Numbered from the stretch's first letter, positions 6,038 through 60,901 are shown. The stretch is DNA of 64,000 nucleotides from Rhodanobacteraceae bacterium (GCA_031425695.1 JANPJV010000076.1:3261-67260), one strand, 5' to 3'. Notes: a model not told the origin generated them from the letters alone. Numbers and translations: made by a program.

Positions 6038-6050
6038 GGGGCGGCTTTTA

Positions 6051-6192
6051 GTAGGTCACGTTGCGCCCGCCCGGTGCCCGGATCGATGGTACCGGACGTC
6101 GGGCGCTACGTGACACTCGCGCGAGGCATTGTCACGTAGCCCGATTTGATACAGCGAAAGCATGCGGATCGCGGGCGCAACGTGACCTACGC
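6051..6192. repeat. REPIN-like composite palindromic element (family A: GTAGGTCAYGTTGCSC)
   Basis: The outer inverted pair is gtaggtcacgttgcgcccgc / gcgggcgcaacgtgacctac. The inner inverted pair is gggcgctacgtgaca / tgtcacgtagccc. The same architecture recurs at about 16044-16196 and 17788-17948. Confidence 0.65.
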
Positions 6193-6285: not shown

Positions 6286-6338
6286 GGCCCCGCTCCCCCA
6301 TCCGCTCGAACATGCGCTCAACCACCATGGAGAGCGTG

Positions 6339-8690: not shown

Positions 8691-8706
8691 GTCCAACTTG
8701 GCTTGC

Positions 8707-8964
8707 GTGGGTTCGGACCTTGTCCGAACGCTTTTGCTCACCAAGAGCGTCCGGACAAGGTCCGGACCCACGTACGGCAAGGAAAGCTCGCTTTTACTCA
8801 CCAAGAGCGTCCGGACAAGGTCCGGACCCACGTACGGCAAGGAAAGCTCACTTTTGCTCACCAAGAGCGTCCGGACAAGGTCCGGACCCACGTAAGGCAA
8901 CAAAAGTTCGTGCTCCCATCGTGTCGCGCCTGAGCCGAGAGCGTCCGACAAGGTCCGGCACGTG
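8707..8964. repeat. REP family B array: one inverted unit plus three exact-period 60 bp tandem units and a degenerate fourth
   Basis: The unit gagcgtccggacaaggtccggacccacgta occurs at 8745, 8805 and 8865. An inverted copy (gtgggttcggaccttgtccgaacgctt) lies at 8707. The sequence between units is also repeated. Confidence 0.85.
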
Positions 8965-9011
8965 GATACCGGCCTCACCCATCCATCGCCCTCGCGGGCG
9001 CAACGTGACCC

Positions 9012-10241: not shown

Positions 10242-10245
10242 ACCC

Positions 10246-10281
10246 GTCAAGTAGCCCGCTTCGCGGGCAACATGACCTACG
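10246..10281. repeat. REP family A unit
   Basis: Sequence gtcaagtagcccgcttcgcgggcaacatgacctacg. Confidence 0.7.
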
Positions 10282-10708: not shown

Positions 10709-10809
10709 GTAGGTCATGTTGCCCGCGCCAGCGGGCTACTTGACGCTTTGGCGGTCGCCCCGTTCAACAGCCGTCAAGTAGCCCGCTGCGCGGGCAACAT
10801 GATTACGAG
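10709..10809. repeat. inverted REP family A doublet
   Basis: gtaggtcatgttgcccgcgccagcgggctacttgac at 10709-10744 pairs with gtcaagtagcccgctgcgcgggcaacatgattacgag at 10773-10809. Confidence 0.75.
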
Positions 10810-15949: not shown

Positions 15950-16043
15950 TCTCGGCCGAAAGTCTTCGACTTTCGCCCGGTACCTAGATTCCGCCCGCGG
16001 AGCAAAAACGTGGTTTTTGCTGCGCGATCACTCGATGCCTTGC

Positions 16044-16196
16044 GTAGTTCACGTTGCGCCCACGCGGCCTTGGTTGCGTCACGGAATTCATCGGGCGCTA
16101 CGTGACAATCGGCGATGCCGCAACGGCGCGTGTCACGTAGCGCCCGAACGTTACCATCGCTCGGCCTTGGAGTTCGCGGGCCCAACGTGACCTACG
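16044..16196. repeat. REPIN-like composite palindromic element (family A), approximate bounds
   Basis: Outer pair is ...cacgttgcgcccacgcgg / gcgggcccaacgtgacctacg. Inner pair is gggcgctacgtgaca / tgtcacgtagcgccc. Confidence 0.6.
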
Positions 16197-18606: not shown

Positions 18607-18795
18607 ATGTTATCGGGAATCATCACTGCGGTTTTGCTGGTGCTGTTCGTCGGCGGCTGGGCGTGGTTGTGGCGGCCGGCGCTGAGGGAGCCGTTGGAGG
18701 CGGCGGGGCGGTTGGCTTTGGAGAGTGAGCAAGCAAGAGCGTCCGGACAAGGTCCGGACCCACGTGAGCAGAGCGAGCAGGAGCCGCGCCGATGA
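18607..18795 (+). CDS. ccoQ: cbb3 oxidase small subunit CcoQ-like, with a REP-derived C-terminal tail
   Basis: MLSGIITAVLLVLFVGGWAWLW forms a single TM helix between ccoO and ccoP. The tail ...ASGQGPDPRE is encoded by a family B REP at 18737-18766. The ORF ends in an ATGA overlap with ccoP. Confidence 0.6.
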   Translation: MLSGIITAVLLVLFVGGWAWLWRPALREPLEAAGRLALESEQARASGQGPDPREQSEQEPRR

Positions 18796-21623: not shown

Positions 21624-22288
21624 GCAAGCCGGTTGCTGAGCGCGCCTGGTCGCAGCCGATTCTTTGGCTGGTGCTGGCGCTGCCGGCGGCGATGGTCGTG
21701 GCCGGCGTGTTCATGGTGCGCAGCGCGATCGGCATGGGCAGTACCGATGCCACCACCGATCGTGTTCTCAAGACTGCACAGGTGCAGACCACGGACCTGA
21801 CGGCCGACCTCAACGCACGCGACGCCGGCCTCATGGCGCAGCTGCAACTGGTGGACGGCTTCATTGAAGTGGTCCCGACCGCCGGCGTGTTTGCACGCGC
21901 GCAGCCACTCACCCTGCTGCTGCGCCATCCGATCGATACGAGGGCCGATCGCGTGTTGCAAATGCAGCCCGACGCGCGTCGTTGGCGGGTCGCGTACACC
22001 GCCGATAGCAAGCACGACTGGCTGCTCGAGCTGCGCCCCGCCGACGGTCGCTGGCGTCTGCAGGGGCGTTGGGTGCGGGGAAATTCAGGGGCGCGATTGC
22101 AGTCATCGCTACGCGTGGGCAGTGTTGCTCTCGTAGGTCATGTTGCCCGAGAACGCGGCAGGAGGGCGGTGCCTTTGGTAGGTCATGTTGCCCGCGCCAG
22201 CGGGCTACTTGACATGTCACCGACGGTGAAAGGCCGTCAAGTAGCCCGCGTTCGCGGGCAACATGACCTACGAGAGCACTCGCGATGA
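21620..22288 (+). CDS. ccoH: FixH/CcoH-like cbb3 assembly protein with a REP-encoded C-terminal extension
   Basis: ATGA overlap with ccoG. It has an N-terminal TM helix (ILWLVLALPAAMVVAGVF) and a FixH-like body ending ...WRLQGRW. The frame then stays open through the REPs to 22288, where it overlaps the ccoI ATG. Confidence 0.7.
   Translation: MSKPVAERAWSQPILWLVLALPAAMVVAGVFMVRSAIGMGSTDATTDRVLKTAQVQTTDLTADLNARDAGLMAQLQLVDGFIEVVPTAGVFARAQPLTLLLRHPIDTRADRVLQMQPDARRWRVAYTADSKHDWLLELRPADGRWRLQGRWVRGNSGARLQSSLRVGSVALVGHVARERGRRAVPLVGHVARASGLLDMSPTVKGRQVARVRGQHDLREHSR
22130..22273. repeat. cluster of three REP family A units inside the 3' end of the ccoH ORF
   Basis: The gtaggtcatgttgccc motif occurs twice in forward orientation, and gtcaagtagcccgcgttcgcgggcaacatgacctacgag occurs once inverted. 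Confidence 0.8.
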
Positions 22289-35069: not shown

Positions 35070-35378
35070 TCAGAACTTCCCCGGGCGCAGAATCTCGACG
35101 TCCGTGAGAAAAGCCACCATCGCATAGTTGGCGTAATAGTTGGCCTGGACATGAGTGAGCACGGACTCGGCCAGTGCGCGCGGGCAGATCAGCTCGATGC
35201 GGATGTTGGAACTCTCACGCCAGGCGGCGTCGCGCACGCCGCGGCTGCCGCGACCACGCGCATCGGTCACCGTGTAGGCGCGCACACCCAGGCGCTCCAG
35301 ATCGCGCAGCAAAGTGTGCTCGATCGTAGCCTCGGTGATCAGCGTGAGCAGGGTGCGTTTTTCGGTGGGCAGCGTCAC
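35070..35378 (-). CDS. P-II-like signalling protein (SbtB-like partner of the upstream permease)
   Basis: 102 aa with a ferredoxin-like pattern and a T-loop-like GRGSRGVRDAAW. It overlaps the stop of the Sbt-like permease. Confidence 0.55.
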   Translation of the reverse strand: MTLPTEKRTLLTLITEATIEHTLLRDLERLGVRAYTVTDARGRGSRGVRDAAWRESSNIRIELICPRALAESVLTHVQANYYANYAMVAFLTDVEILRPGKF

Positions 35379-36316
35379 GGAGGTGCTCCCACGAGTTGCG
35401 TTGCCAACCGATGATAAAGCGCGATTCCGACGAGGATATTGAATGGGAAGGTCACGCCGAGCACGACGCCGAGCGATAGCGCGGGATTGGCTTGCGGCAC
35501 GGCAACGCGCATCGCTGCTGGCACCGCGATGTACGAGGCGCTCGCCGCCAGAGTAGCCAGCAAGGTCAGCCCGCCGACGGACAGGCCGAGCATCATCCCG
35601 CAGCCCAGACCCAGCATGGCCGACAAGAGCGGCATGCCGACACCGAAGGCGACCAGGAACACGCCATTGCGCTTGAGCTCACCCATCTGCCGGCTGACGA
35701 TCAGCCCCATCTCCAGCAGGAATAGCGCGAGCACACCGGAGAATAGTTCGAAGTAGAAGCTTTTGATCGGGGCGAGCCCCTCCGGCCCGGCGATCCAGCC
35801 GATCGCCATGCCGCCGAGCAGCAGCGTCACGCCTTTGCCCAGAAAGGTTTCGTGCGCCAATAGCTTCCAGTCGGTCGTCCGCCCAACGCCGCGGACCAGC
35901 ACGATGCCGACCATGATGGCCGGGACCTCCATGACCGCGAGAAAGACCGCCATTTGCGATTCGAACTCGATGTTACGGGCGATCAGCCAGTTGACGCCGA
36001 CCGCGAAGGTGGCAACGCTCACCGAGCCATAATGGGCCGCCGTGGCCGCCGCGTCCGCCCGGCCCAGGCGGCCCAAGCTGCGCAGGATGGCGAACGCGAT
36101 CAGTGTTTGCACCACCCCCAGCGCGACCACCGCAGCCAGTTGCGGTAACAGCGGCGCCAGCGCCTGTTTCGCCAAACCCTCGCCGCCCTTCAGCCCAATC
36201 GCCAGCAACAGAAACACCGACAGCGAGTCATACAGCGCTGACGGCAGCTTGAGGTCTGAGCGCGCGAGGCCGGCCGCCAGGCCGAAGAGAAAAAACAGGA
36301 CGACGACGTCGATCAA
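35375..36316 (-). CDS. SbtA-like (DUF897) sodium-dependent bicarbonate transporter family permease
   Basis: N-terminus reads MIDVVVLFFLFGLAAGLARSDLKLP...LLLAIGLKGGEGL. About 10 TM helices, 313 aa. Confidence 0.7.
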   Translation of the reverse strand: MIDVVVLFFLFGLAAGLARSDLKLPSALYDSLSVFLLLAIGLKGGEGLAKQALAPLLPQLAAVVALGVVQTLIAFAILRSLGRLGRADAAATAAHYGSVSVATFAVGVNWLIARNIEFESQMAVFLAVMEVPAIMVGIVLVRGVGRTTDWKLLAHETFLGKGVTLLLGGMAIGWIAGPEGLAPIKSFYFELFSGVLALFLLEMGLIVSRQMGELKRNGVFLVAFGVGMPLLSAMLGLGCGMMLGLSVGGLTLLATLAASASYIAVPAAMRVAVPQANPALSLGVVLGVTFPFNILVGIALYHRLATQLVGAPP

Positions 36317-36360: not shown

Positions 36361-36636
36361 TCAATCAAACAGGTCCCGCAAGAAAGACTTGCGCGGCTTG
36401 TCTCGATAGTCGTCGTCTCGGTAGTGGCGCTCCTGGCGCTCGGGTCCGCGTGTTCTCTCCGGTTCGTCGCTGTGCGGTCGGCGATCTTGAGCCGCCGGGC
36501 GCTCAGCGCGCTCGAGCAGTTTGTCCAATTCGCCGCGGTCCAGCCAAATGCCGCGGCAGGAAGGACAGTAGTCGATCTCAATCCCTTGCTTGTCGGTCAT
36601 GACTAGATTCGAGTCTTTGCACACTGGGCATTTCAT
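36361..36636 (-). CDS. zf-TFIIB-type zinc-ribbon protein
   Basis: MKCPVCKDSNLVMTDKQGIEIDYCPSCRGIWLDRGELDKLLE is followed by a charged tail. AAGGGA precedes ATG 36636. An alternative ATG at 36690 overlaps the pyrC stop. Confidence 0.65.
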   Translation of the reverse strand: MKCPVCKDSNLVMTDKQGIEIDYCPSCRGIWLDRGELDKLLERAERPAAQDRRPHSDEPERTRGPERQERHYRDDDYRDKPRKSFLRDLFD

Positions 36637-36686
36637 AGGCTTTCCCTTGAGTCTGTTGGTCGAGATTGCATTTGCAGCAGTGGAGT

Positions 36687-37721
36687 TCATGGGTCGGATA
36701 GCGCCCACGCAATCGTCCCTCCTGCGCGCAGCGGCACGCCGGTTTGATTCCCGAAGCGCACCTCTTGGGGCACCGTCCAGTTCCGCTTCTCCAGGATCAG
36801 CGTGTCGCGGTTGCGCGGCAGCCGGTAGAAATCGGGGCCATGAAAGCTGGCGAACGCCTCGAGCCGGTCGAGCGCGCCTGCCGCGTCGAAGACTTCGGCG
36901 TACAGCTCGATCGCGGCATGGGCAGTGTAGATCCCGGCGCAGCCGCAAGCGGACTCCTTTGCGTGGCGCGGATGTGGCGCGCTATCGGTGCCGAGGAAAA
37001 ACTTGGGACTTCCGCCGGTGGCCGCGGCGACGAGCGCGCGGCGGTGCGTCTCGCGCTGCAACAGCGGCAGGCAGTAGTGATGCGGCCGCAAACCGCCGGC
37101 AAACAGAGCATTCCGATTGAGCAGCAGATGGTGGGCTGTCAGGGTCGCCGCAATGTTGCCAGCAGACTCGCTGACGAAGGCGACCGCAGCGTCAGTGGTG
37201 ATGTGCTCCAGCACCATGCGCAGCCCGGGAAACGTGCGCACCAGCGGCGCCAGACGCTCGATGAAGATCGCCTCACGGTCGAAGACATCGATCTCAGCGT
37301 CAGTGACCTCGCCATGCAGAAGCAATGGCAGATCGTGCTCTTCCATCGCTGCGAGCACTGGATAGACGCGCTTGAGGTCGGTCACGCCGCTTTCAGAATT
37401 GGTCGTCGCACCTGCCGGGTAGTACTTGACTGCGTGCACGAAGCCGCTGGCTTTGGCTCGCGCGATCTCCGCTGGCGGCGTTAGGTCGGTCAGATACAGC
37501 GTCATCAGCGGCTCGAATCGCGCATCAGCTGGCAAGGCCTTGGCGATCCGCTCGCGATACGTGCGCGCGTGCTCGACGGTGGTCACTGGCGGCTTCAAGT
37601 TGGGCATCACGACGGCGCGCGCAAACCGCCGCACCGTGTCCGGGAGCACGGCGGCCAGCACCTCACCATCCCGCAGGTGCAGGTGCCAATCATCAGGTCT
37701 GGTGAGGGTCAGGCGCTTCAT
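36687..37721 (-). CDS. pyrC: dihydroorotase (class II, homodimeric type)
   Basis: The N-terminus [19 protein letters not shown] is typical, and the length (344 aa) fits. Confidence 0.9.
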
Positions 37722-38680
37722 GTCCGCACGCTTTTCCGGGTGGCGATCAGGCTGGCGATCATGGAAGTGGCGAGGGTCATGGCCACGATCCCCAGGGCCA
37801 ATCCGATCGGAACTTTGTAGAAGTCGGCAATGAGCATCTTCGTGCCGACAAACACCAACACCAGCGCCAGCCCGTACTTGAGGAGATGGAAGCGATTGTT
37901 CAAATCGGCGAGCAGGAAGAACATCGCCCGCAGTCCCAGGACGGCGAAGACGTTTGAGGTAAAGACGATGAACGGATCGCTGGTGATCGCGAAGATGGCC
38001 GGGATCGAATCCACCGCGAAGATCAGGTCGGAGAACTCGATCAGCACCAGCACCAGGAACAGGGGCGTGAACCAGCGCACACCGTCTTTGATCACGGTGA
38101 AGCGCTCCCCGTGATACTCGGTCGAAATGCGCAGGTGTCCACGCATCCAGCGTAGTAGGGGGTTCTTTTCCAGGTCGGTGTTTGCGTCAGCAAAGATCAG
38201 CATCTTGATGCCGGTGATCACCAGGAACGCACCAAAGAAATAGAGAATCCAATGGAACTTCGCCACCAGGACGGCACCGGCAAAGATCGCGATGCCGCGC
38301 ATGACGATCGCGCCAAGCACGCCGTAGAGCAGCACGCGGCGCTGGTACTCGGGTGGCACGGCGAAGTAGCTGAAAATCATGATGAACACGAATACGTTGT
38401 CGACCGACAGCGACAGTTCAATCAGATAGCCAGTCAGGAACTCCAGCGCCTTGGTGTTGGCGACTTCCCGTCCGGCGCTGCCGTCCAGCCACCACCACAA
38501 CAAACCATTGAAGATCAGCGCCAGGCTGATCCAGGCAAACGTCCAGGCACCAGCCTCCCGGGCAGAAACTCGATGGGGGGTCTTGCCACCCAGGACAAAC
38601 AGGTCGAGTGCCAGCATGACCAAGACAAAGACGATGAACCCGATCCAGAAAACCGGCGGGGCAAATGTGGTCAGTTCCAT
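37718..38680 (-). CDS. TerC family integral membrane protein (copy 1)
   Basis: Contains TerC-type repeats ([31 protein letters not shown]). Confidence 0.85.
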
Positions 38681-39573
38681 TGACGTGTTCCTTCAGAGGT
38701 CAGCGTGCCGAGGGCAGCGATGCGCTCGTCGAGGGGAGGGTGACTGGAAAACAGCGCCATCCAGCCGGGTCGGCCATTGATGCCCGCAGTCGCTACGTTT
38801 TTCGGCAAATCGCCGGCTTCCATGCCACCCAAGCGGCGCAGGGCGGCGAGCATCGGTTGCGGCGAACCTAAAAGCGCGGCTGCGCCCGCGTCGGCCCGCA
38901 ATTCGCGCTGACGTGAAAAGTGCATCACGATCAGGCTGGCGAGAATGCCGAAGACGATGTCGCAGATGACCACGGTCACCATGTAGGCGACACCGGGGCC
39001 TTGTTGCTCGCCGTCCCTGCGCAGCATCGAGTCGACCAGCCAGCCGACGACCCGCGCGAGGAAGATGACGAAGGTGTTCACCACGCCCTGGATCAGGGTC
39101 AGGGTCACCATGTCGCCGTTGGCGACATGGGCCACTTCATGCGCCAGAACGGCCTCAGCCTCTTCTCGCGTCATGCTTTGCAAGAGCCCGGTCGACACGG
39201 CGACCAGGGCCTTGCTGCGGCTCGCTCCGGTGGCAAAGGCATTGGCCTCGCCCTCGTAGATCGCGACTTCAGGCATTGGCAACCGGGCCGTGTCTGCCAA
39301 GCGGCGGACCGTTTCCAACAGCCATACCTCGGTTGCGTTTTCAGGTGTAGTGATGACCCGCGCACCCGTTGACCATTTGGCGATGGTCTTGGACATCCAC
39401 AGGGAAATGAAAGCACCGCCGAATCCCATCAGCGCGGCGAACACCAACAGCCGGCCGAGATCGAGTCCACCGCTGCTGGTGAAGTACTTGTGGGCACCGG
39501 TCAGGGTGCAGACCACGCCGAGCACCACCAAGATGGCGAGATTTGTGCCAATGAGCAGCGCGATCCGTTTCAT
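38671..39573 (-). CDS. htpX: membrane zinc protease HtpX
   Basis: Starts [17 protein letters not shown] and contains the HExxH motif [13 protein letters not shown] 39573 is chosen rather than 39594. Confidence 0.9.
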
Positions 39574-40049
39574 ATCGTTGGCTCGCTCATGCACTCATCG
39601 GAGCTTTCGCGGCGCATCAGCTCCACCAGTTCCGGTCGTCCAAGAAACCCGACGCCGCCTGGGTACAAACCCCAGTGGTCGATGGTGGCCAGCAGTACGA
39701 TGTATTCGCTGCTGTGCACTTGGCCGTCAGCATTGACGACTGCAGTGCACAAGCGCAGCACCAGGCTTTGCAGCGTGGGGTCGTCGATCTCGGCAAACAG
39801 CCCGGCAATCATCCCGGCGTCGATGAGGCAGTCTGTCTCTGCGATGGCTGAGGCAAGCAAGTCAGTACAAAAATCGTGGGTGATGTCTTGCCATTCCTGG
39901 CGCGACAATCCGAGCTGTTCGTGGGCAGCGACTGCCTCGAGCGTGGCCAGTTCGGCCGGCTGCAACTGGCCGTCGGCAAGCATGGCCAAAACCACGATTC
40001 GCGCGGCGGCCTGCGGGCTGTTGCGGGGATACGAGCGCAAGCAATTCAT
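39570..40049 (-). CDS. TerB-like domain protein
   Basis: [24 protein letters not shown] and [16 protein letters not shown] resemble TerB/DjlA-N repeats. The call is by eye. Confidence 0.45.
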
Positions 40050-40417
40050 GTGCGGGGCTCCTCGTTGGCCACGAGGCCAGTTGCAGCTGCAGGCCCGTCA
40101 GTTGTGCACGAAACGCTGTGCAGATGCTTGACGACCGCGCGACCTGCCTGATCCGCAGCGCGATCGATCACTGTGTGCAAATCGTGACCGACGTCCCTGA
40201 TGAGAACGACGGGAGCACCTGTGAGGTGTACCTGGATGCGGCAAAACTTGTTGAATTCGCCGCGCGGGCCGTGCTCGTTTCCCAAGCGCAAAGTGACGCG
40301 CTGGATGCGGTCCCCATAGCGCGCCAATGCGAATTGAAGTCGGCGCCGTGCATGGTCCGACAATGCTGTTGTGCAGAAGATTCCGAGGCCGCGGATATCA
40401 ATGTTCATCAGGCTCAT
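40046..40417 (-). CDS. HPF/RaiA-family ribosome-associated factor-like protein
   Basis: The 123 aa pattern IDIRGLGIFCTTALSDHARRRL...RVTLRL...CRIQVHL...AIDRAADQAGRAV fits the S30AE/HPF fold. Confidence 0.5.
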   Translation of the reverse strand: MSLMNIDIRGLGIFCTTALSDHARRRLQFALARYGDRIQRVTLRLGNEHGPRGEFNKFCRIQVHLTGAPVVLIRDVGHDLHTVIDRAADQAGRAVVKHLHSVSCTTDGPAAATGLVANEEPRT

Positions 40418-40438
40418 CTTCGAACGCCCTGATATGAA

Positions 40439-40520
40439 GGTGGCTCACACTAAGGCTCCCAGCTAGCGGTTAAAAGTCGAATGTTCTTACTGGTTCAATC
40501 GAAAAAACCGTATGATTCAG
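40439..40520. promoter_or_regulatory. 82 bp conserved upstream element, copy A (upstream of the hpf-like operon)
   Basis: About 80 percent identical, without gaps, to 45773-45854. The core is tcgaatgttctt...tcaatcg(a/t)aaaaaccgtatgatt. Confidence 0.6.
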
Positions 40521-40570
40521 AAGCTGCTCTGACGGCGGCGAGAGTGACGGGCGTGCCCCAAAGTTCGGCT

Positions 40571-42493
40571 CTAAATCCGAACCGGCCCGCCGACTTCCAT
40601 CAGGCGATCCGCCGGGATGCGAAAGTAGCTGCTGGCCGCTGCGGCATTGCGGTGCATGAGCGCAAAGATTTGATCGCGCCACCAGGGCATGCCGCGGTCC
40701 CGGCTCGCGAGCACCGTTTCTCGTCCGGTGAGATAAGTGGCCGTGTCCGGATCGAAGTCGAGATCGACAACAGCGCGGAGCGCTGCGAGCGCGGCCGGGA
40801 TATCGGGCGCCTCCATGAAGCCGAAGCGCGCCACGACGATATGGAAAGCGTCGTTGAGTGTTTGAGCGGTCAGGCGTTCTGCGTTTGGCACATAGGGTAT
40901 GGGCAGGATCTGCACGGTCAGGATGAGATTGCGTTCGTGGATCACTTTGTTGTGGCGCAGGTTGAACGCGAGCGCGCGCGGAACGACGGCGCTCTCGGAA
41001 GTCAAAAACACCGCCACTCCTGGGACACGCTGTGGCGAATTCCGCAGCACCGCGGCTGCAAAGCTCGCCAGCGGGGTGCCTTGTTGATGCAGTTGTCCAT
41101 GCAATAAGGCGCGGCCGCGGCGCCAGGTCCGCATGCAGGTGAACGCCACCAGCCCGATCGCCAGCGTCACCCAGGCGCCGGCGCCGCTGAAGAGCTTCGC
41201 GGCGTTGGCAAACAAGAAGGCCAGATCGATCATCAGAAACAGGGCGCAGAGGGGCAACACCCAGACGCGCGCGCGTTGCCAGCTGGTGTAGGCGACGACT
41301 GCCAGTAGCAGAGTGTCCATCAGCATCGTGCCGGTGACCGATAAGCCATACGCGGATGCGAGTGCGCTCGAGCTGCCGTAACCCACAGCCAGGGCAACCG
41401 TCGCCACGAACAGCAAGCGGTTGATCGCCGGCAGGTAGACCTGCCCCATCGAAGCCTGGGACGTGTACCGAATTCGCAGGCGCGGCAAATAGCCCAGATT
41501 GATGGCCTGCGCAGCCATCGAGAATGCGCCAGTGATGACCGCCTGCGAGGCAATCGCCGCAGCTATCGTTGCCAGCGCGATCATTGGAATCTGCGCCCAG
41601 GCGGGAATGGACAGGTAGAAAGGATTGGCGATGGCGGCCGGGTCGCGCAACAACAGCGCACCTTGTCCAAAATAGTTCAACACGAGTGCGGGGAGAACGA
41701 AGCCGAACCAGCCCCAGCGGATCGGGGCTTTGCCAAAATGACCAAGGTCCGCGTACAGCGCCTCTCCCCCCGTTACGATCAGCACCACGGCACCGAGTAC
41801 CAGGAATGCGTGCCAGCCGTGGTTGGCGAAAAAGTGCACCGCCCACCATGGGTTCATGGCACTGAGGATTTCCGGTTCAGACACGATGCTCGCCAGCCCG
41901 AAGCCGCCAATGGCGAGGAACCAGACCAGCATCACCGGGCCGAAAACGCGACCAACGCGCGCCGTGCCGAAGCGTTGGAGGGCAAATAGCCCGGTCAGGA
42001 TCACCACAGTAATCGGCAAAACCCAAGGGGCCAGGACGGGCGCAACGACCTCGAGACCCTCGACCGCGCCCAGGACCGTGATCGGCGGCGTGATCATGCT
42101 GTCGCCCAGGAACAGAGCTGCCCCAAAAATCCCCAGGACGCCTGCGCAATAGCCCCAGCGCGACGTAACACTTAAGCCGCGTTGCGCCAATGCGGTCAAA
42201 GCCATGATCCCGCCCTCACCACCGTTGTCGGCACGGAGAATGACGATCACGTATTTGACGCTCACGACCAGCATCAGCGTCCAGAACCCAAGGGACATCA
42301 AGCCTTTGATCGTCGCGGGCTCCGGCGTCAACCCAAATTGCGGATTGAACATCTCCTTGACCGTGTACAGCGGGCTGGTACCGATATCCCCAAAGACCAC
42401 TCCGACCGCGCCTACGACCAGTGCGGCGAGTCCAGCGTGACTGGAACCTGCCCGATCGGTGGCGGGCTGCAAACTGTCGTTGGTCTTGTTCAT
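40571..42493 (-). CDS. kup: KUP-family potassium uptake transporter
   Basis: 640 aa, with N-terminal VVFGDIGTSPLYT and a typical C-terminal cytoplasmic domain. Confidence 0.95.
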   Translation of the reverse strand: MNKTNDSLQPATDRAGSSHAGLAALVVGAVGVVFGDIGTSPLYTVKEMFNPQFGLTPEPATIKGLMSLGFWTLMLVVSVKYVIVILRADNGGEGGIMALTALAQRGLSVTSRWGYCAGVLGIFGAALFLGDSMITPPITVLGAVEGLEVVAPVLAPWVLPITVVILTGLFALQRFGTARVGRVFGPVMLVWFLAIGGFGLASIVSEPEILSAMNPWWAVHFFANHGWHAFLVLGAVVLIVTGGEALYADLGHFGKAPIRWGWFGFVLPALVLNYFGQGALLLRDPAAIANPFYLSIPAWAQIPMIALATIAAAIASQAVITGAFSMAAQAINLGYLPRLRIRYTSQASMGQVYLPAINRLLFVATVALAVGYGSSSALASAYGLSVTGTMLMDTLLLAVVAYTSWQRARVWVLPLCALFLMIDLAFLFANAAKLFSGAGAWVTLAIGLVAFTCMRTWRRGRALLHGQLHQQGTPLASFAAAVLRNSPQRVPGVAVFLTSESAVVPRALAFNLRHNKVIHERNLILTVQILPIPYVPNAERLTAQTLNDAFHIVVARFGFMEAPDIPAALAALRAVVDLDFDPDTATYLTGRETVLASRDRGMPWWRDQIFALMHRNAAAASSYFRIPADRLMEVGGPVRI

Positions 42494-42783
42494 TGGATTT
42501 TGAAATGCCTAGAGCGCTGGCGATGAGATCGATATCTAGGCGGCGGTGCTGCAGATCGACAGCCGCGGGGATGGATGTGTGAACCGCCACGAGGGTGGCG
42601 ATGTGGGACGCTGACTCGACGCCCGAAGGCCCGAAACGTATCCGATCAACAATCCGCCCAGGAGCATCGCGCTGGCGCGCGCCGGGAACACCTCGTTGAG
42701 CGTCGCCGACAGCTGCCTCGAATCGAGGCACTCGTCATCGGTTGGCGCGCCGCGGTTGGCAGCGCATTGAGCGGCGACGCTGA

Positions 42784-43587
42784 TCAGGGGGCCGCTTCTG
42801 CCGCAAGCGGCGTTTCGCGAACCTCGATGTGCAGCCGTCCATCGCGGGTGGCGGCTTCCACCAGCAGTTGCCGATCGGCCCGGTACAGTGCCTCCAATGA
42901 CCCGTCGCGCTCGCCGATGACTTGCTCGGCGTAGCCGAGTCCCAATAGTTCCCTGCGCAACTCGCTGACCTGGAAGCCGTCGGACTCAGCCACATAGGTG
43001 TACTCCGCGACCGCACCGGCTTCACGAAAACCCACTTGGCGGACGGGCAGCGCGCTCGGCCAAAGCTGTGGATCCCGCCCAGCAACGGTGGTCACTGCCC
43101 GCGTAACCGAATCCATTTTGGCCGTCACTGCCGCGCTGGCTGCCGCCGCGGTGGCGGCCAGGCTACGTGTGGCCTCCTGCCCGGCGGCATCGACGGCGCG
43201 GTCAATGGCCAACTGCGGTTCCGCCAGAACCTCGGCGGCGCGGTCGCGGGTCTGGTCGACTGTCGCCCGGGCGTCAGCGAGGATGCGGGCGGCATCCTGC
43301 GTCGCCGCAGCGGTCGCCCGCTGCAGAGCGGTTTGCGGCTCCACCAGAACCTCCGCCGCTCGCTCACGCGACGTCGCCACCGTCGCCTTAGCGTCTTCGA
43401 TTGCACGCGTGGCTTCCTGGCGCGATTGCGAGACCGATTCAGTCACGCTGGTGAGCGCTTGCGTGCCCCACTCGGTCAGGTGCCAGACCGCCACGGCACT
43501 GACCACGACGAGCGCAAGGATGGTCACTGCAACAATCCCGACGATGCCGAACAAGATGCCGCGGCGATTGGATTTCAGATTTTTCAT
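42784..43587 (-). CDS. membrane-anchored hypothetical protein with a 2x40 aa helical repeat
   Basis: Starts at MKNLKSNRRGILFGIVGIVAV, preceded by GAAGGAGA. It has one TM helix, then the repeat (E/D)A(T/A)R(A/I)(I/L)(E/A)DA(K/R)ATV...R(E/D)RAAEVL(V/A)EPQ twice. Confidence 0.6.
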   Translation of the reverse strand: MKNLKSNRRGILFGIVGIVAVTILALVVVSAVAVWHLTEWGTQALTSVTESVSQSRQEATRAIEDAKATVATSRERAAEVLVEPQTALQRATAAATQDAARILADARATVDQTRDRAAEVLAEPQLAIDRAVDAAGQEATRSLAATAAAASAAVTAKMDSVTRAVTTVAGRDPQLWPSALPVRQVGFREAGAVAEYTYVAESDGFQVSELRRELLGLGYAEQVIGERDGSLEALYRADRQLLVEAATRDGRLHIEVRETPLAAEAAP

Positions 43588-43598
43588 GAGTGTCTCCT

Positions 43599-44603
43599 TC
43601 AAGAACCAGATGAGGTTGAATGGGTCACGGCTTTGCGGGTCCGATAGAGGCTGTAGACGATGCCGCCGCCCAGCAGCGCTCCCGTAACACCGAGCGAGAC
43701 CATTGGCGCGACCTTGCCGTACACCTGCGCCCAGAAAATCTTGGCGCCGACGAAGATCAGCACGAGCGCCAGCGCGTACTTGAGGTAGTGGAAGCGATCG
43801 ACGACTGCGGCGAGCGCGAAATACAGTGCGCGCAGGCCCAGGATGGCGAAGATGTTCGAGGTGTAGACGATGAACGGGTCCTGGGTGATGGCAAAAATCG
43901 CCGGCACCGAATCGACCGCAAAGATCAAGTCGACGAACTCGACCAGCACCAGCGCCAGGAATAGCGGCGTTGCCCACCACACCAGTTTTGCCGAGGGCGA
44001 AGCGTCTTTGGGCGCACGCACGAAGAAGCGGCTCCCGTGCAACGCGGGCGTGACCCGCATCCGCCTTTGCAGGAATCCAATGAATGGGTTGGACGCCAGA
44101 TCCGGCTTGCTATCGACCATCCAGAGCATCTTCACGCCAGTCAGCAGCAGGAAGGCGCCGAAGATCCACATGATCCAGTCGAAGCGTGTAATCAGCGCCG
44201 CCCCGAGCCCGATCATCACCGCGCGCATCACGATGACACCGAGAATTCCCCAGAACAGCACGCGGTACTGGTAAGCCGGCGGGATCGCGAAATAAGTGAA
44301 GATCATCGCGATCACGAAGACATTGTCGATCGCCAACGTCTTTTCGATCATGAAGCCGGTCAGGTACTCCATGCCCGAATTGGCGCCGAGGTACCACCAC
44401 ACCCACGCACCGTACAGCAGTGCCAGGGCGATGTATCCGATCGACAAGACGATGCTCTCGCGAATGCCGATCACGCGATCGTTCCGGTGCAGGACGCCGA
44501 GATCAAAGGCCAGCAGCACCGCGACGATGCCGACGAAACTGAGCCAAAGCCAAGCCGCCTTGCCCAGGAACTCCTGGGCGAGGAACATTTCTATCGAGTC
44601 CAT
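43599..44603 (-). CDS. TerC family integral membrane protein (copy 2)
   Basis: Contains EKTLAIDNVFVI and [19 protein letters not shown]. Confidence 0.85.
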   Translation of the reverse strand: MDSIEMFLAQEFLGKAAWLWLSFVGIVAVLLAFDLGVLHRNDRVIGIRESIVLSIGYIALALLYGAWVWWYLGANSGMEYLTGFMIEKTLAIDNVFVIAMIFTYFAIPPAYQYRVLFWGILGVIVMRAVMIGLGAALITRFDWIMWIFGAFLLLTGVKMLWMVDSKPDLASNPFIGFLQRRMRVTPALHGSRFFVRAPKDASPSAKLVWWATPLFLALVLVEFVDLIFAVDSVPAIFAITQDPFIVYTSNIFAILGLRALYFALAAVVDRFHYLKYALALVLIFVGAKIFWAQVYGKVAPMVSLGVTGALLGGGIVYSLYRTRKAVTHSTSSGS

Positions 44604-44612
44604 GGTGATTCC

Positions 44613-45755
44613 TTAGGCGAGTAAACGAAGCTTTCGGCGCGCTATCAGCGGGTCGAGCCAGGCCAGGGCGACATAGGCGAAGCGTCGGTAGACCCTGGTC
44701 AGCAACCTTGGTGTTTCGCTGCGAAATGGACGCGCGTGCTGCTGAATCTGGTCGACAATGGCGCGCGCCTGCGTAGCGACGCCGGCATCCTCGATCCTGA
44801 GCATCAGGTCGAAGTTGATGCGCAGACTGCGCGGATCGAAATTCGCCGAGCCGAGGTAGACCACGTCGTCGGCAACCACAAGCTTGGCGTGCAACATGGC
44901 TGGAAGGTACTCATAGGCGCGGATGGCGGTCTGCGCGAGCCCCTCCAGCACATGCGCGGAGGCGTGATGTGCGAGCGCCACGTCGCCCGCCGCCGGGACA
45001 ATGATGCGGACCTGTCCGCGCCTGGCGACACCCGCGAGGAGCTTGCGGAGCCGAGTCGTCGGGACGAAGTACGCGGCCAGCACGTCGATGCTGCGAGCGC
45101 GTGCAAGGTCACGGTGCAGTCGGCGGCGATAACGGCGGCCGCCACGACCTGCCCCGGCGAAGAACAGCTCCCAATCTGCCCCGTGGCCGGCTTGCGGCAT
45201 CGTGGCCGCAGTCGGCAAGTGGTCGAAGGGCGCCAGTTCCCACATGTGCGCGAAGGAACGCGCCAGCGTGGCCACGCATTCCGGCTCATGAACACAGACA
45301 CCAAGATCACGCCAGCCTTGCTCGATCCCATCGCCGTCGTACTCGTCGGCCACATTGCAGCCACCGACGAATGCTTGGCCGGCGTCGATCACCACCAGCT
45401 TTCTGTGATTGCGAAAGCTGAGTCGGGTCAAGCGCCTGGGGTTGAACCATTCAAGCTGGACACCCGCCGCCGCCATTTCGCCGAACGTCAGTTGCGCTCC
45501 CTCGCTGCCGAAGGCGTCGAGGAGCACGCGAACTTGGCAACCACGACCGGCTGCCCGTGCCATCGCGGCCCCAAGGCGGTCGGCCAACTGACCAGGCGAC
45601 CAGACGTAGAACTCGACGTCGATCGAGCACCGTGCGCGATCGATCGCCTCGAGAATGGCCGCGAACCATTCGCGGCCCGTTGCGTACCAGGCGAGGGACG
45701 GCGCTACCGAGGTCAGCATGGCAGGGGTGCGCACTGATGAATCAACCAGAAGCAT
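44613..45755 (-). CDS. phospholipase D / cardiolipin synthase-like protein (two HKD motifs)
   Basis: Contains HRKLVVIDAGQAFVGGCN and LHAKLVVADDVVYLGSANFDPRS. The start is placed at MLLVDSS (45755), because the upstream part of the ORF covers the conserved non-coding element. Confidence 0.8.
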   Translation of the reverse strand: MLLVDSSVRTPAMLTSVAPSLAWYATGREWFAAILEAIDRARCSIDVEFYVWSPGQLADRLGAAMARAAGRGCQVRVLLDAFGSEGAQLTFGEMAAAGVQLEWFNPRRLTRLSFRNHRKLVVIDAGQAFVGGCNVADEYDGDGIEQGWRDLGVCVHEPECVATLARSFAHMWELAPFDHLPTAATMPQAGHGADWELFFAGAGRGGRRYRRRLHRDLARARSIDVLAAYFVPTTRLRKLLAGVARRGQVRIIVPAAGDVALAHHASAHVLEGLAQTAIRAYEYLPAMLHAKLVVADDVVYLGSANFDPRSLRINFDLMLRIEDAGVATQARAIVDQIQQHARPFRSETPRLLTRVYRRFAYVALAWLDPLIARRKLRLLA

Positions 45756-45772
45756 CACTTGGCCTCCGCGAC

Positions 45773-45854
45773 GGTGGCTCACCTTAAGACTCCCGGTTAG
45801 CGGTGTAAATTCGAATGTTCTTGGTGTATCAATCGTAAAAACCGTATGATTTAG
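45773..45854. promoter_or_regulatory. 82 bp conserved upstream element, copy B (between the PLD operon and the divergent LysR gene)
   Basis: See copy A. It contains TATGAT 7-8 nt upstream of the regulator start codon. Confidence 0.6.
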
Positions 45855-45857
45855 GTG

Positions 45858-46790
45858 ATGAACCTCAAGCACCTTCAGTACTTCGCGCAGGTCGCCAAAG
45901 CCGGTAGCGTCGTTCGTGCGAGCGAGATCCTGCACCTGACCCCGCAGACCATCAGCGGGCAAATCCAGCTTCTCGAAGAGGCCTTGGGAAGCGCGTTGTT
46001 TGCCAAGAGCGGGCGTGGGCTGGTGCTCACCGACGCCGGGCGCCTGGCTTTGGGATACGCAAATGAGATCTTCTCGCTGGGTGCCGAGCTTGAGGAGGCC
46101 GTCCGCGGACATCAAACCCAGGGACGCGCGCTGGAGTTTCGAGTCGGCGTCGTCGACGTCGTACCCAAATCGATCGCCTACCGTCTGGTCGAGCCCGCGA
46201 TGCAGCTACCGGAACCCGTGCGGGTGGTTTGTCGGGAATGGAAACTTGACAGCCTTTTGGCGGAATTGGCATTGCACCGGCTCGATCTAGTCATCGCCGA
46301 TGCTGCAATCCCGGCCTCAGTCAGCGTGCGCGCGTTCAGTCACCGCCTCGGTACTTCGGCTGTGAGCTTCTTTGCGGCGCCGGCATTGTTCGAACGGCAC
46401 CGCGGGGTGTTTCCGAAATGCCTCGACGGTGCCCCATTGTTGATGCCAGGAGAAGACTCGGCCTTAGGCCAGCGTCTGCGCGCGTGGTTCCTCGATCACG
46501 ATCTGCACCCGCGAGTCGTTGGCGAGTTCGATGACAGTGCCCTGGCGAAGGAATTTGGACGCCGTGGCGCAGGCATCTTCGTCGGCCCATCGGTGTTGGC
46601 GCACGAGATCGAAAAGCAGTACGGCGTGCGCAAGCTGGGCGATGCGGATGGTGTCGAGGACGCGTTTTTCGCGATCTCGGTCGAGCGCCGCATTACCCAT
46701 CCGTGCGTCGTTGCGATTACCCAATCGGCCCGCAACAACTTGTTCGCGTTGTCTTCCAAAGCCAAGCCGCAACGCGCGGCGAGGCGCTGA
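45858..46790 (+). CDS. LysR-family transcriptional regulator, NhaR-like
   Basis: The N-terminal HTH LKHLQYFAQVAKAGSVVRASEILHLTPQTISGQIQLLEEALGSALF closely follows the NhaR pattern LTPQTI(T/S)GQI. Confidence 0.85.
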   Translation: MNLKHLQYFAQVAKAGSVVRASEILHLTPQTISGQIQLLEEALGSALFAKSGRGLVLTDAGRLALGYANEIFSLGAELEEAVRGHQTQGRALEFRVGVVDVVPKSIAYRLVEPAMQLPEPVRVVCREWKLDSLLAELALHRLDLVIADAAIPASVSVRAFSHRLGTSAVSFFAAPALFERHRGVFPKCLDGAPLLMPGEDSALGQRLRAWFLDHDLHPRVVGEFDDSALAKEFGRRGAGIFVGPSVLAHEIEKQYGVRKLGDADGVEDAFFAISVERRITHPCVVAITQSARNNLFALSSKAKPQRAARR

Positions 46791-51089: not shown

Positions 51090-51300
51090 CGCTGGGACGA
51101 GCCCCGATGACTCGACGACGCGACACTTGAAGCGATCTTTCCGCCCGGCGTGCCGCAGTTGTTCACCCACTGCCGTCCGGAGCCGTAATCTTGGCGACGA
51201 GCGGCACATCGACAGCGGCCCACAGACCACGCGCGCGCTCGGCTACATCTATCGGGCCGGCCGATGAACTAGCTGCCTTGCGTGGACCCGGCAATCCAGC
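51090..51300 (+). pseudogene. relic of the 3' end of a phosphoketolase-family paralog
   Basis: LDDATLEAIFPPGVPQLFTHCRPEP-stop, then a frameshift, then IDSGPQTTRALGYIYRAG. This parallels LDDAALEEIFPTGVPRVFITHTRPEPYLGALRRIDSGPQTTRALGYINRGG at 60580-60730. Confidence 0.7.
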
Positions 51301-58372: not shown

Positions 58373-60901
58373 ATGACCGCAGCATCGGTGAGCGAGCACG
58401 TCGACACGCACGTCAGCGCGGCGACCAGTGACGATCTGCCTCCCGCCGTGCGGGTCGAGCTCGCGCACCGCGCCGCGCAACTGCGTGCGGCTGACGCGGT
58501 CTTTGCGTCCTGGGCGGCGGGCTACGGGTTGATCCAGCACGATGTGCTGACGCAAGTGCGTGTGTATTCGATGGTCCGAAGACTGGTCACCGACAACCAG
58601 GTCGTCGATGCTGCCACCGCCTATGCGCGGCTTTCCGCCGCCGATCGCGTGGCCAGTGCCGGCATGTGGCTGGTCGCGCACATGAGCTATGCCCAGCGTG
58701 TCCGGCTGGACGGGGGGCCGCTGGTGGCGGGGGACTTCAAGGCGAATCCCGAGGGTCACACCGGCGGTGCGCTCAACATGGTGCCGGCTTACGTCGCCTA
58801 TCTCGCCATGAACGCGCTCGACGGCCGCACGCGCAGCTGGATGATGGGGCAGGGCCATTGCGTGGCTGCTATCGATGCGCTCAACGTGCTGGTCGGCAAC
58901 CTGCATCCGGAACAGGCAGCCCGCTACCCGATGGACGACGCCGGACTCTCGCAACTGGCGTCGGATTTCTACGGTTACGCGATTGGCGCGGACGGCATGC
59001 CGTCTGCACCGCTCGGTAGCCACGTGAACGCGCATACCGCCGGGGGCACGCAGGAAGGCGGATATCTTGGCTTCACCGAGCTGCACTACGTGCATGCGCC
59101 ATTGCCCGGTGAGCGCCTGGTAGCCTTTCTCAGCGACGGCGCCTTCGAAGAACAGCGCGGCAGCGACTGGGCGCCTCGCTGGTGGCGGCCTGAGGACTCC
59201 GGAATGGTCGCGCCGATCATGATCTTGAACGGTCGTCGCATCGAACAACGGACGCTGATCGAGCAGCAGGGTGGCGAATCGTGGTTGCACCGACACCTGG
59301 AGCTCAACGGCTTCGAGGTTTTTGGCCTGGATGGGCGCGATCCGGCGAGCATGGCCTGGGGCATCCATGCAATGGAGGCGCGCCTGGGCGAACGCATTGC
59401 TGCAGTGCTGGCGGGGCGGCCGGATCCGACGCGTCGGCTCGGCTATGGCATTGCCGAGACCATCAAGGGTTTCGGGTTGCCCGGCGCGGGTGGTAATCGC
59501 GCCCACAACCTGCCGCTCGGTGGTAATCCGTCAAAGGATGTTGCTGCGCTGGAGGAGTTCAACGGCGCGGTCGCGCGCCTGCATGTTCCGGCGGTGGAGC
59601 TGCGCGCGGCGATCGTGGACCTGGCGACGCACGCCGAGCAGGCGCGGTCACTGGAGCGCGATCACGCGCTGGGCCGGCGTGACGTGGCAAGCCCGCATCT
59701 GCCAGCGCTCGAAGACGCGTCGAGCGCAAGCGATGGTTCGCCGATGGCCGCCCTCGATGTGCGCTTCAGCGCGATCCTGGCTGCCAACCGTCACTTGCGG
59801 GCGCGCATCGGCAACCCCGATGAGTTGCGCAGCAATCGGCTCGACCACACGCTCGACCTGCTGAAGCACCGGGTGTTCGAACCCGAGGCCGGCGTTGCCG
59901 AAGCGCGCGGCGGCGGCGTCATCACCGCCCTGAACGAAGAGGCCGTGGCATGCGCGGCACTGGGTAACAAAGGTGGCATCAACCTGGTCGTGACCTACGA
60001 GGCCTTCGCCCCGAAGATGCTCGGAGCGTTGCGCCAGGAAATCACGTTCGCGCGCCAGCAGCGGCAGGTCGGGCGCGCGCCGGGCTGGCTGTCAGTGCCG
60101 GTCGTGCTCACCTCGCACACCTGGGAAAACTCCAAAAACGAAGTCTCGCACCAGGATCCGACCCTGGCCGAGGCGCTGCTAGGCGAAATGGCCGACAGCG
60201 TCTCGGTGGTGTTTCCGCCCGATGCCAACGCCACGGTCGCGGCCCTCGATCACGCGTACAGCTCGCATGGGCGCATCGTGGCGATGGTCGTGCCCAAACG
60301 TGCCGTCGCCCATCGGCTGACTGTTGCGCAGGCGCAGGCGCTCGCGTCGCAAGGGGCGTTGACACTGATTCCGGCAACCGCAGCGGAGCAAGCACCGCGC
60401 CATCATGGCGCGGGCATCAGCGCGCCGCAGTTGCTGCTCGCGGCCAGCGGCGCCTACCAGTTGGCCGCAGCTGTGCGCGCGCATGCGCGCCTCAGCGAGC
60501 GTGGTATCCGCTGCGCGCTCATCGTGATCGGCGAGCCGGGGCGCCTGCGCACTCCGCGCGACGCGCTCGAAGCGCGCCACGTGCTCGATGATGCGGCGCT
60601 CGAGGAAATCTTCCCCACAGGCGTGCCGCGAGTGTTCATCACCCATACCCGCCCGGAGCCCTATCTCGGCGCGTTGCGGCGCATCGACAGCGGCCCGCAG
60701 ACGACGCGTGCACTTGGCTATATCAACCGCGGCGGCACGCTCACCGTCGACGGCTTGCTGTTCGCCAATCGCTGCAGCTGGGGACATGTGGTCGAGGCGG
60801 CGGGTGCGGTGCTGGGTCTTTCCAGCAGCAGCCTGCTCCGTCCCGACGAGCTGGCCGCGGTCCGCGGTGAGGGCGACCCAACGGTGTTGTGGCGAAGCTG
60901 A
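58373..60901 (+). CDS. phosphoketolase-family (TPP-dependent) enzyme, divergent
   Basis: The pattern FKANPEGHTGGALNMVPAYVAY...MMGQGHCVAAIDALNVLVGN...YPMDDAGLSQLASDF parallels the XFP N-domain (GHWGT..., GPGHGGPA...). The C-terminus reads LGYINRGGTLTVDGLLFAN. ATG 58373 follows AGGATCGAGGAA; the frame is open from 58190. Confidence 0.6.
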   Translation: MTAASVSEHVDTHVSAATSDDLPPAVRVELAHRAAQLRAADAVFASWAAGYGLIQHDVLTQVRVYSMVRRLVTDNQVVDAATAYARLSAADRVASAGMWLVAHMSYAQRVRLDGGPLVAGDFKANPEGHTGGALNMVPAYVAYLAMNALDGRTRSWMMGQGHCVAAIDALNVLVGNLHPEQAARYPMDDAGLSQLASDFYGYAIGADGMPSAPLGSHVNAHTAGGTQEGGYLGFTELHYVHAPLPGERLVAFLSDGAFEEQRGSDWAPRWWRPEDSGMVAPIMILNGRRIEQRTLIEQQGGESWLHRHLELNGFEVFGLDGRDPASMAWGIHAMEARLGERIAAVLAGRPDPTRRLGYGIAETIKGFGLPGAGGNRAHNLPLGGNPSKDVAALEEFNGAVARLHVPAVELRAAIVDLATHAEQARSLERDHALGRRDVASPHLPALEDASSASDGSPMAALDVRFSAILAANRHLRARIGNPDELRSNRLDHTLDLLKHRVFEPEAGVAEARGGGVITALNEEAVACAALGNKGGINLVVTYEAFAPKMLGALRQEITFARQQRQVGRAPGWLSVPVVLTSHTWENSKNEVSHQDPTLAEALLGEMADSVSVVFPPDANATVAALDHAYSSHGRIVAMVVPKRAVAHRLTVAQAQALASQGALTLIPATAAEQAPRHHGAGISAPQLLLAASGAYQLAAAVRAHARLSERGIRCALIVIGEPGRLRTPRDALEARHVLDDAALEEIFPTGVPRVFITHTRPEPYLGALRRIDSGPQTTRALGYINRGGTLTVDGLLFANRCSWGHVVEAAGAVLGLSSSSLLRPDELAAVRGEGDPTVLWRS

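Follow-up and report, generated by a model that had tools for sequence, protein, structure and literature searches.

Two copies of a promoter/operator module predicted to place two operons under one NhaR-type regulator in a Rhodanobacteraceae genome

Introduction

Why would the same piece of intergenic DNA stand in front of two different operons, and next to a regulatory gene at only one of them? This question is raised by a 64,000-nt stretch of DNA from a Rhodanobacteraceae bacterium (GCA_031425695.1, JANPJV010000076.1:3261-67260), hereafter the window, in which one copy of a short repeat (copy A) precedes a minus-strand operon headed by an HPF-like gene, and a second (copy B) lies between a minus-strand operon headed by a PLD/cardiolipin-synthase-like gene and a divergent gene for a LysR-type regulator, nhaR. 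A preliminary description of the locus had proposed that this one LysR regulator controls two paralogous membrane-stress operons through a duplicated operator/promoter module. Here, we compare the repeat with its homologues in relatives, dissect its layout, and trace how it came to precede two operons. We conclude that the module is probably an NhaR-dependent promoter/operator of the LysR type, and that the two operons have different origins.

Results

The repeat has two copies in the window

Copies A (40436-40520) and B (45770-45854) align without gaps over 85 nt, with 70 of the 85 positions identical (82%), as found in a repeat search, where they form family D6, and confirmed by a recount. 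The 82-bp duplication at about 80% identity that had originally been described is therefore slightly longer than thought. A 41-nt core common to both copies, TCGAATGTTCTTNNTGNNTCAATCGNAAAAACCGTATGATT, occurs at exactly two sites in the window when up to three mismatches are allowed, and at none in 100 shuffled sequences. Likewise, the family profile described below, when run over the 64-kb window, finds these two sites only (Table 1), the next match having an E value >2. The 85-bp repeat is thus real and far beyond chance.

The position of the copies relative to the neighboring genes is similar, but not identical. Copy B is separated by a gap of 14 nt from the ATG of the PLD gene (45755). For copy A, the gap to the HPF-like gene is 18 nt if counted to the first ATG (40417) and 27 nt if counted to an alternative ATG at 40408, which is possibly the true start since it better fits the N termini of homologues (M-x-I-D-I). 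Consequently, the equal distance to both operons noticed earlier holds only approximately. On its other side, copy B ends 3 nt short of the start codon of nhaR (45858). Copy A has no regulatory gene next to it, nhaR being 5.3 kb away, and a search for an nhaR remnant to its right revealed no similarity past position 40520.

The module accompanies nhaR in Burkholderiales

The regulator, initially described as NhaR-like, indeed passes the cut-off of the NhaR equivalog in NCBIfam (Table 1). Its homologues bear the name NhaR in Rhodoferax, Polaromonas, and Rubrivivax, and its nearest relatives are Burkholderiales NhaR proteins (from Rhizobacter, Methylibium, Rhodoferax, Hydrogenophaga, Cupriavidus, and others). 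We therefore turned to 80 nhaR loci from Burkholderiales and searched them with an nhmmer profile seeded with the two window copies and iterated until it converged at 75 columns. In 68 of the 80 loci, from Comamonadaceae to Cupriavidus and Rhodocyclaceae, a module precedes nhaR by no more than 120 nt, and several of the 12 loci without it are loci without upstream DNA. In the 80 genomes, homologues of the module always lie at the nhaR cluster. Conservation is blockwise, that is, AaTcTAggg is followed by ~14 free positions, cgtGtAAAttcGAtT.aT, ~8 more free positions, and AT..ttCGaaaAAAccg.A..ATt.

Which gene faces nhaR across the module could be determined for the 72 loci with enough upstream DNA. 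It is an HPF-like gene in 44, usually followed by genes for zinc-ribbon, TerB, TerC, Sbt, and P-II proteins, and it is a terC gene in 16, a terB gene in two, a zinc-ribbon gene in one, and another gene in the remaining nine. A PLD gene adjoins nhaR in none of the 80 loci. Judging by this gene order, the operon that ancestrally faced nhaR is the one behind copy A since an HPF-like gene occupies that place in 44 of 72 loci.

Further copies in relatives, for which a search had been suggested, do exist: a second module is present near nhaR in several of them. It stands before HPF-like genes in L061 and L071, before Bax1-I/YccA-like genes in L053 and L057 (near 8200-9020) and in L062 (8336-9755), and before a Usp gene in L023. 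In L062, it sits between the Bax1-I gene and the gene for MnhE, a subunit of the Mnh/Mrp Na+/H+ antiporter. In L076 (4453-4727), the second module precedes a fragment of nhaR that covers 66 N-terminal residues and is 62% identical. These second copies retain 85-100% of the conserved columns and 17-59% of the free ones, with the exception of the weak match in L062, which retains 59% of the conserved columns (13/22). That older copies keep the conserved but not the free columns suggests that duplicated modules are held by selection on binding positions. As for their origin, we argue for segmental duplication of the nhaR-proximal region; the copy in L076 is probably an intermediate of spread by this route.

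The module has the predicted layout of a LysR-type promoter

On the strand opposite nhaR, the conserved blocks of the family correspond to a -10 box (TAGATT, which can be generalized to TAnnnT), a 17-nt spacer, a -35 box (TTTACA), a TCGAtT block from -36 to -45, and a dyad, ATnnTTCG-N7-CG(A)AnnAT, centered at -65. The first two blocks are predicted to form a textbook sigma-70 promoter. In the window, the promoter boxes were recognized through the family alignment only, and transcription starts were placed 7 nt beyond each -10 box (Table 1). The center of the copy B dyad (45839) falls at -65 from the start predicted for that copy, a geometry that copy A and the family profile share. The AT-rich block abutting the -35 box, TCGAATGTTCTT, is the same in both copies; its family consensus is ttcGAtT.aT, and its conservation is at the level of sequence only.

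The dyads in the two copies contain, and extend, the AATCG-N11-ATGATT dyad already pointed out in the preliminary description. The TATGAT box that had been spotted before nhaR is also where it was said to be (45845-45850, 7 nt before the ATG), and it is the right half of the copy B dyad. Autoregulation is expected from this overlap, and the copy B site thus probably also serves to control nhaR itself.

The core of the dyad resembles sites at which NhaR has been studied by experiment. The NhaR matrix in PRODORIC, TcgtaAaAAac, is quoted by Krol (PLoS One 2018, PMC6307784), who derives TCgaAAAAatCtA as a NhaR motif of the T-N11-A form. The cores of copy B (TCGTAAAAACCGT) and copy A (TCGAAAAAACCGT) match both of these E. 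coli motifs and share TCG(T/A)AAAAAC. Moreover, the upstream region of nhaA in E. coli K-12 contains, ~100 nt before the start codon, the sequence TCGTAAAAAACGA, which is nearly the same as the window cores and which is matched by the recognition-site columns of the Burkholderiales profile with an E value of 0.004 in 1.7 kb. From this likeness, we infer an operator of the same type.

The module was fused to a cassette from another cluster

How did a second operon come to lie behind an NhaR module? Of the 28 freely varying columns that could be compared, copies A and B agree in 20 (71%). Pairs from different loci agree in 31% on average, and just 0.7% of them score as high as A and B. This indicates recent common ancestry of the two copies, by duplication or gene conversion, and not just convergence on binding sites. 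An exact-pattern scan of the metagenome collection for the window version of the module gave no match, and hence no near-identical relative with which to date the duplication.

The cassette behind copy B has a history of its own. Homologues of its PLD protein are rare, as determined by protein searches and contig look-ups, and none could be confirmed in JGI metagenomes with peptide patterns. In three loci (L087, L089, and L090), the PLD gene lies within a single operon, HPF-TerC-PLD-TerC-membrane protein, which is divergent from another NhaR-like regulator. One of the three is from a Rhodanobacteraceae genome. This second regulator is ~50% identical to the NhaR of the window, with a similar box, CATCGAAAAATACGAAC, in the corresponding position. 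The PLD-TerC_B-membrane protein cassette of the window is orthologous to the distal part of that operon, with identities of 67-87% for PLD and 83-96% for TerC_B. The nearest cassette, in L085/L086 (PLD 87% and TerC_B 96% identical), lacks a module, and all that remains in front of it are decayed fragments of HPF and TerC genes. In contigs of those samples, nhaR (85% identical) stands beside the HPF operon, in the ancestral arrangement. Homology between the window and L085/L086 starts at 45770 (CGCGGAGGCCAaGTGATG), exactly where the A/B repeat ends, which indicates that the module was joined to the cassette 15 nt before the ATG of the PLD gene.

These comparisons indicate that the PLD cassette derives from a separate NhaR-like cluster, having lost its own regulator and proximal genes and gained a copy of the NhaR module. 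The two operons of the window, which had been considered paralogous, are thus not duplicates of one another. The module copies, in direct orientation, flank a 5.25-kb block (40521-45769) that comprises kup, a stretch without assignment, and the cassette. The kup gene is not part of the cassette in relatives since none follows it in L085/L086.

Alternatives to an NhaR-dependent module

Several observations weigh against two NhaR-dependent promoters. A consensus promoter/terminator scanner with a threshold of 9/12 finds no match in either region. Weak promoters are, on the other hand, typical of activator-dependent promoters. The right half of the T-N11-A box reads CGT instead of CGA in both window copies (the 13th base is T, not A), and the promoter boxes, transcription starts, and NhaR binding are predicted from sequence. 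Differences between copies A and B are in the expected direction, but not significantly so (3 of 25 conserved versus 8 of 28 free columns), and because the duplication is recent, the conserved binding positions of copy A are alone no proof of function. Finally, Pfam and NCBIfam reveal no NhaA-family protein among the genes behind either module, so that this NhaR may sense a signal other than that of its E. coli counterpart. We nevertheless consider an NhaR-dependent promoter/operator of the LysR type to be the likely identity of the module.

The alternative that survives best, although we consider it unlikely, is that NhaR-dependent promoter activity resides in a single copy. The other copy would then be a recent, undecayed by-product of rearrangement, and the operon behind it would depend on read-through or a different promoter. 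Since the copies are young (82% identical overall, 71% at free columns), binding positions may persist simply for lack of time. In addition, the -35 box of copy A (TTTTAA) is poorer than that of copy B, and read-through is conceivable since all genes from PLD to the P-II-like gene are on one strand, with no convincing terminator between. However, copy A fronts the operon that is the conserved partner of NhaR, and copy B adjoins nhaR just as the module does in most relatives, so that each copy retains half of the ancestral arrangement. The older second copies of relatives, in which spacers have diverged around conserved columns, also indicate that duplicates are maintained.

It is even less probable that the module is a shared promoter for another regulator or an alternative sigma factor, and that its adjacency to nhaR is mere synteny. 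NhaR binding is predicted, and AT-rich blocks can be bound by nucleoid proteins too, among them H-NS, which at E. coli nhaA acts together with NhaR (PMC6307784). Against this, the dyad has the T-N11-A form of LysR sites and matches the NhaR motif of E. coli as well as the sequence upstream of nhaA. Moreover, the module follows nhaR through 68 loci, and even the ~50% identical NhaR-like regulator has its similar box at the same position.

A cis-acting RNA leader, that is, a riboswitch for the terC genes, has very little left to commend it. TerC/Alx genes are usually under the yybP-ykoY manganese riboswitch, the element is upstream of terC-containing operons, and both TerC proteins of the window fall in the NCBI subfamily 'R_switched_Alx'. 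However, transcription is predicted to start downstream of the conserved blocks, and terC is the second or fourth gene of its operon, not the first. Rfam reports no family in the whole window at the gathering threshold and, when both regions are searched up to an E value of 10, only chance matches (trypanosome snoRNA and JUMPstart, E 3-7). Four minus-strand fragments are not more stable than shuffled sequences (minimum free energy z-scores of -0.9 to +0.6), and RNAalifold predicts zero pairs for 18 diverse modules. On these grounds, we rejected an RNA leader or a known RNA family.

A dispersed repeat of the repetitive extragenic palindromic (REP) or miniature inverted-repeat transposable element (MITE) type, landed by chance at two intergenic sites, is just as improbable and was rejected: other short palindromic repeats are indeed present in the window (families D2, D8, D14, D15, and D20), but the mismatch-tolerant and profile searches each find two copies only in 64 kb, the element has no terminal inverted repeats, its conservation is position-specific, and neither the metagenome scan nor the 80 nhaR loci place it at the many unrelated sites that would have spoken for such a repeat.

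Proposed mechanism

Having weighed these alternatives, we propose the following scheme for an NhaR-dependent module. Each copy would provide a sigma-70-type promoter on the minus strand, TTTACA-17 nt-TAAGGT in copy B and TTTTAA-17 nt-TAGTGT in copy A. NhaR would bind both modules, at the -65 dyad, (A/T)TCAATCG-N7-CGTATGAT, and at the -35-proximal TCGAATGTTCTT. When the signal is present, a LysR tetramer sitting on recognition and activation sites would recruit RNA polymerase, and NhaR would co-activate the HPF-like/TerB/HtpX/TerC/PyrC/zinc-ribbon/Sbt/P-II and the PLD/TerC/membrane protein operons. At copy B, it would at the same time limit its own synthesis. By analogy with E. coli, NhaR may respond to Na+/Li+, to alkaline conditions, or to some related ion stress. 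Na+ or alkaline stress would fit the cargo of the operons since alkaline conditions induce TerC/Alx in E. coli, transporters of the SbtA type are coupled to Na+, and in one relative a gene for an Mrp antiporter adjoins a module.

Genes and other repeats in the window

Table 1. Features of the two modules, the operons behind them, and the related cluster. Positions are counted from the first nucleotide of the window, except in the last row, where they are those of the loci named.
Feature	Position	Strand	Remarks
Module copy A	40436..40520	-	Predicted promoter/operator before the operon headed by the HPF-like gene; family D6; profile match 40450-40518, E 2e-10 over all loci, 2e-11 in the window alone
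Predicted -10 box TAGTGT, copy A	40447..40452	-	Aligned with TAGATT/TAGAGT block of family, profile columns 1-6; predicted start ~40440
Predicted -35 box TTTTAA, copy A	40470..40475	-	Weak (3/6); 17 nt from -10; aligned with TTTACA of family, columns 24-29
Promoter-proximal block TCGAATGTTCTT, copy A	40477..40488		About -36 to -47; candidate activation-binding site
Dyad TTCAATCG-N7-CGTATGAT, copy A	40494..40516		Core TCGAAAAAACCGT (40499-40511), center ~-65; candidate NhaR recognition site
Module copy B	45770..45854		Predicted divergent promoter/operator, PLD-TerC operon (-) / nhaR (+); family D6; profile match 45785-45853, E 7e-11 over all loci, 5e-12 in the window alone
Predicted -10 box TAAGGT, copy B	45781..45786	-	From family alignment; predicted start ~45774
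Predicted -35 box TTTACA, copy B	45804..45809	-	17 nt from -10; from family alignment
Promoter-proximal block TCGAATGTTCTT, copy B	45811..45822		Candidate activation-binding site
Dyad ATCAATCG-N7-CGTATGAT, copy B	45828..45850		Core TCGTAAAAACCGT (45833-45845), center ~-65 from predicted minus-strand start
nhaR, LysR-type transcriptional activator	45858..46790	+	Pfam HTH_1 and LysR_substrate; NCBIfam NhaR equivalog NF008284, 246 bits, cut-off 219
PLD/cardiolipin-synthase-like protein	44613..45755	-	Pfam PLDc_2 and PLDc; GGAGG ribosome-binding site 45763-45767
TerC/Alx-family membrane protein, TerC_B	43599..44603	-	49% identical to TerC_A; Pfam, NCBIfam
Membrane/coiled-coil protein	42784..43587	-	Last gene of PLD cassette; 60% identical to gene after TerC_B in L085/L086; no family match above cut-off (Pfam, NCBIfam)
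Kup K+ transporter	40571..42493	-	Pfam K_trans and K_trans_C; inside the 5.25-kb block between the copies
HPF/S30AE-like protein	40046..40417	-	Small, weak match; Pfam PF02482, E 1e-6; TIGR00741, 27 bits, cut-off 40.9
TerB-like protein	39570..40049	-	Pfam PF05099
M48/HtpX-type membrane protease	38671..39594	-	Pfam PF01435, E 5e-38
TerC/Alx-family membrane protein, TerC_A	37718..38680	-	Pfam TerC; TIGR03718, 414 bits
Dihydroorotase, pyrC type	36687..37721	-	TIGR00856 equivalog, 464 bits
Zinc-ribbon protein	36361..36948	-	Pfam PF13453; listed reading frame overlaps pyrC, true start probably further downstream
Sbt_1 (SbtA-like) transporter	35375..36316	-	Pfam PF05982, E 4e-110
P-II-like protein	35070..35378	-	Pfam PF00543
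Second NhaR-like cluster	L087 5239-10952; L089 5492-10852; L090 5193-10448		T-N11-A box TCGAAAAATACGA just upstream of the regulator gene

Pfam and NCBIfam searches bear out the gene content previously listed for both minus-strand operons (Table 1). The PLD-like protein scores below the cut-offs of the NCBIfam cardiolipin synthase models. A full-length dihydroorotase gene sits within the stress-type operon behind copy A, between the terC and zinc-ribbon genes; tblastn of its product against the 80 nhaR loci gave no match, and no such gene is present at this place in those operons. The two terC genes share 78% DNA identity over 245 nt (37836-38080 versus 43738-43982), while their products are only 49% identical overall; this stretch could be a conserved core or result from local gene conversion between the paralogues. 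Between the copies, 290 nt without an assigned feature separate the membrane-protein stop (42784) from the kup start (42493). An open reading frame (ORF; 42216-42731) of 171 residues lacks a family match, shares 278 nt with the 5' end of kup, and is unlikely to be a gene.

Elsewhere in the window, three tandem 60-nt units that are 92-98% identical, each with the palindrome GTCCGGACAAGGTCCGGAC, are found at 8729-8908 between the ORFs 6312-8690 and 9012-10241, and a fourth, diverged copy of the unit lies at 18721-18780. They look like a REP-type intergenic array. Another palindromic family, GTAGGTCATGTTGCCCGCGCCAGCGGGCTACTTGAC (D8, D14, D15, and D20), occurs in direct and inverted orientation at 10244-10275, 10709-10744, 10771-10802, 22128-22267, 6044-6074, and 16037-16067, two of its copies being 100% identical though 11.5 kb apart. 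Three tandem 36-nt units, CCAATGCCAGAAGCATCGCGGCCATGGCCGCTCCCAC, which are 86% identical and lie within long overlapping ORFs (20860-20968), possibly encode a 12-residue protein repeat. Finally, a 74-nt direct repeat with 78% identity (family D7; 51188-51261 versus 60663-60736, 9.5 kb apart) is probably paralogous coding sequence.

Discussion

The question with which we started can be answered in two parts. The earlier proposal that one LysR regulator serves two operons through a duplicated module is supported by the NhaR equivalog match, by conservation of the module at most nhaR loci, by its LysR-type layout, and by its match to E. coli motifs, while the part that made the operons paralogous does not stand. 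Taken further, our findings lead to a broader reading, to which we would give an even chance: that NhaR in Burkholderiales controls a conserved ion and envelope stress regulon instead of nhaA, that a protein activator has there taken the place of the Mn2+/pH riboswitch of Alx, and that the regulon grows by copying of the 85-bp module. This regulon may comprise HPF-like, TerB, TerC/Alx, HtpX, SbtA-like, and P-II-like genes, joined in some genomes by Bax1-I/YccA, Usp, and Mrp genes. The window may have caught one such copying event, with base-exact junctions, in which a PLD-TerC cassette bereft of its own NhaR-like regulator was re-wired.

Our literature search found no paper linking NhaR to TerC/Alx, HPF-like, or Sbt/P-II genes, or to Burkholderiales. 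Likewise, the literature searched holds no match for the pairing of NhaR with HPF-like, TerB, TerC (Alx), Sbt, and P-II genes, for a protein activator replacing the Alx riboswitch, or for growth of a regulon that can be followed to the base. The general picture of LysR-type regulation is unchanged by these findings, which concern an ordinary bacterial gene switch with a traceable history, and their value lies in annotation and in the design of experiments. They offer a testable model of the NhaR operator outside enterobacteria, that is, the (A/T)TCAATCG-N7-CGTATGAT dyad at about -65 together with a TCGAAT block at the -35 box. They tie NhaR, across Burkholderiales, to TerC/Alx, HPF-like, and Sbt/P-II genes instead of nhaA. 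And they provide a base-level record of how a regulon would gain an operon, by duplication of a module and its fusion 15 nt before a start codon.

How does the locus compare with known systems? The closest is the NhaR/nhaA operator of E. coli (known also from osmC and pgaA), with which it shares an orthologous regulator and an operator of the T-N11-A form, TCGTAAAAAACGA there corresponding to TCGTAAAAACCGT and TCGAAAAAACCGT here. However, nhaA and nhaR of E. coli share one operon, in this order, and the regulator activates a Na+/H+ antiporter, whereas nhaR of the window is divergent from its predicted target and there is no nhaA. The predicted targets are instead HPF-like, TerB, HtpX, TerC/Alx, Sbt/P-II, and PLD genes. 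In its layout, the module resembles the classical divergent promoters of LysR-type regulators (CbbR/cbb, BenM/ben, and OccR/occ), which have a divergent regulatory gene, a T-N11-A dyad at about -65, and a block at a weak -35 box, and in which the recognition site also overlaps the promoter of the regulator itself. It differs from these in that it is present in two copies 5.3 kb apart, one without an adjacent regulator, and in that its positions are predicted.

The yybP-ykoY (Mn2+) riboswitch, also known as the PRE element, controls the same TerC/Alx subfamily, and control by it in E. coli is also responsive to alkaline pH, a condition linked to NhaR. In contrast, control in the window would be transcriptional and exerted by a protein activator, in line with the negative Rfam search and the lack of conserved structure. 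The second NhaR-like cluster, finally, has genes of the same families and a similar box just upstream of its regulator, which is nevertheless only ~50% identical to NhaR of the window. The window has the cassette of that cluster without this regulator and the proximal genes, and with a copy of the NhaR module in front.

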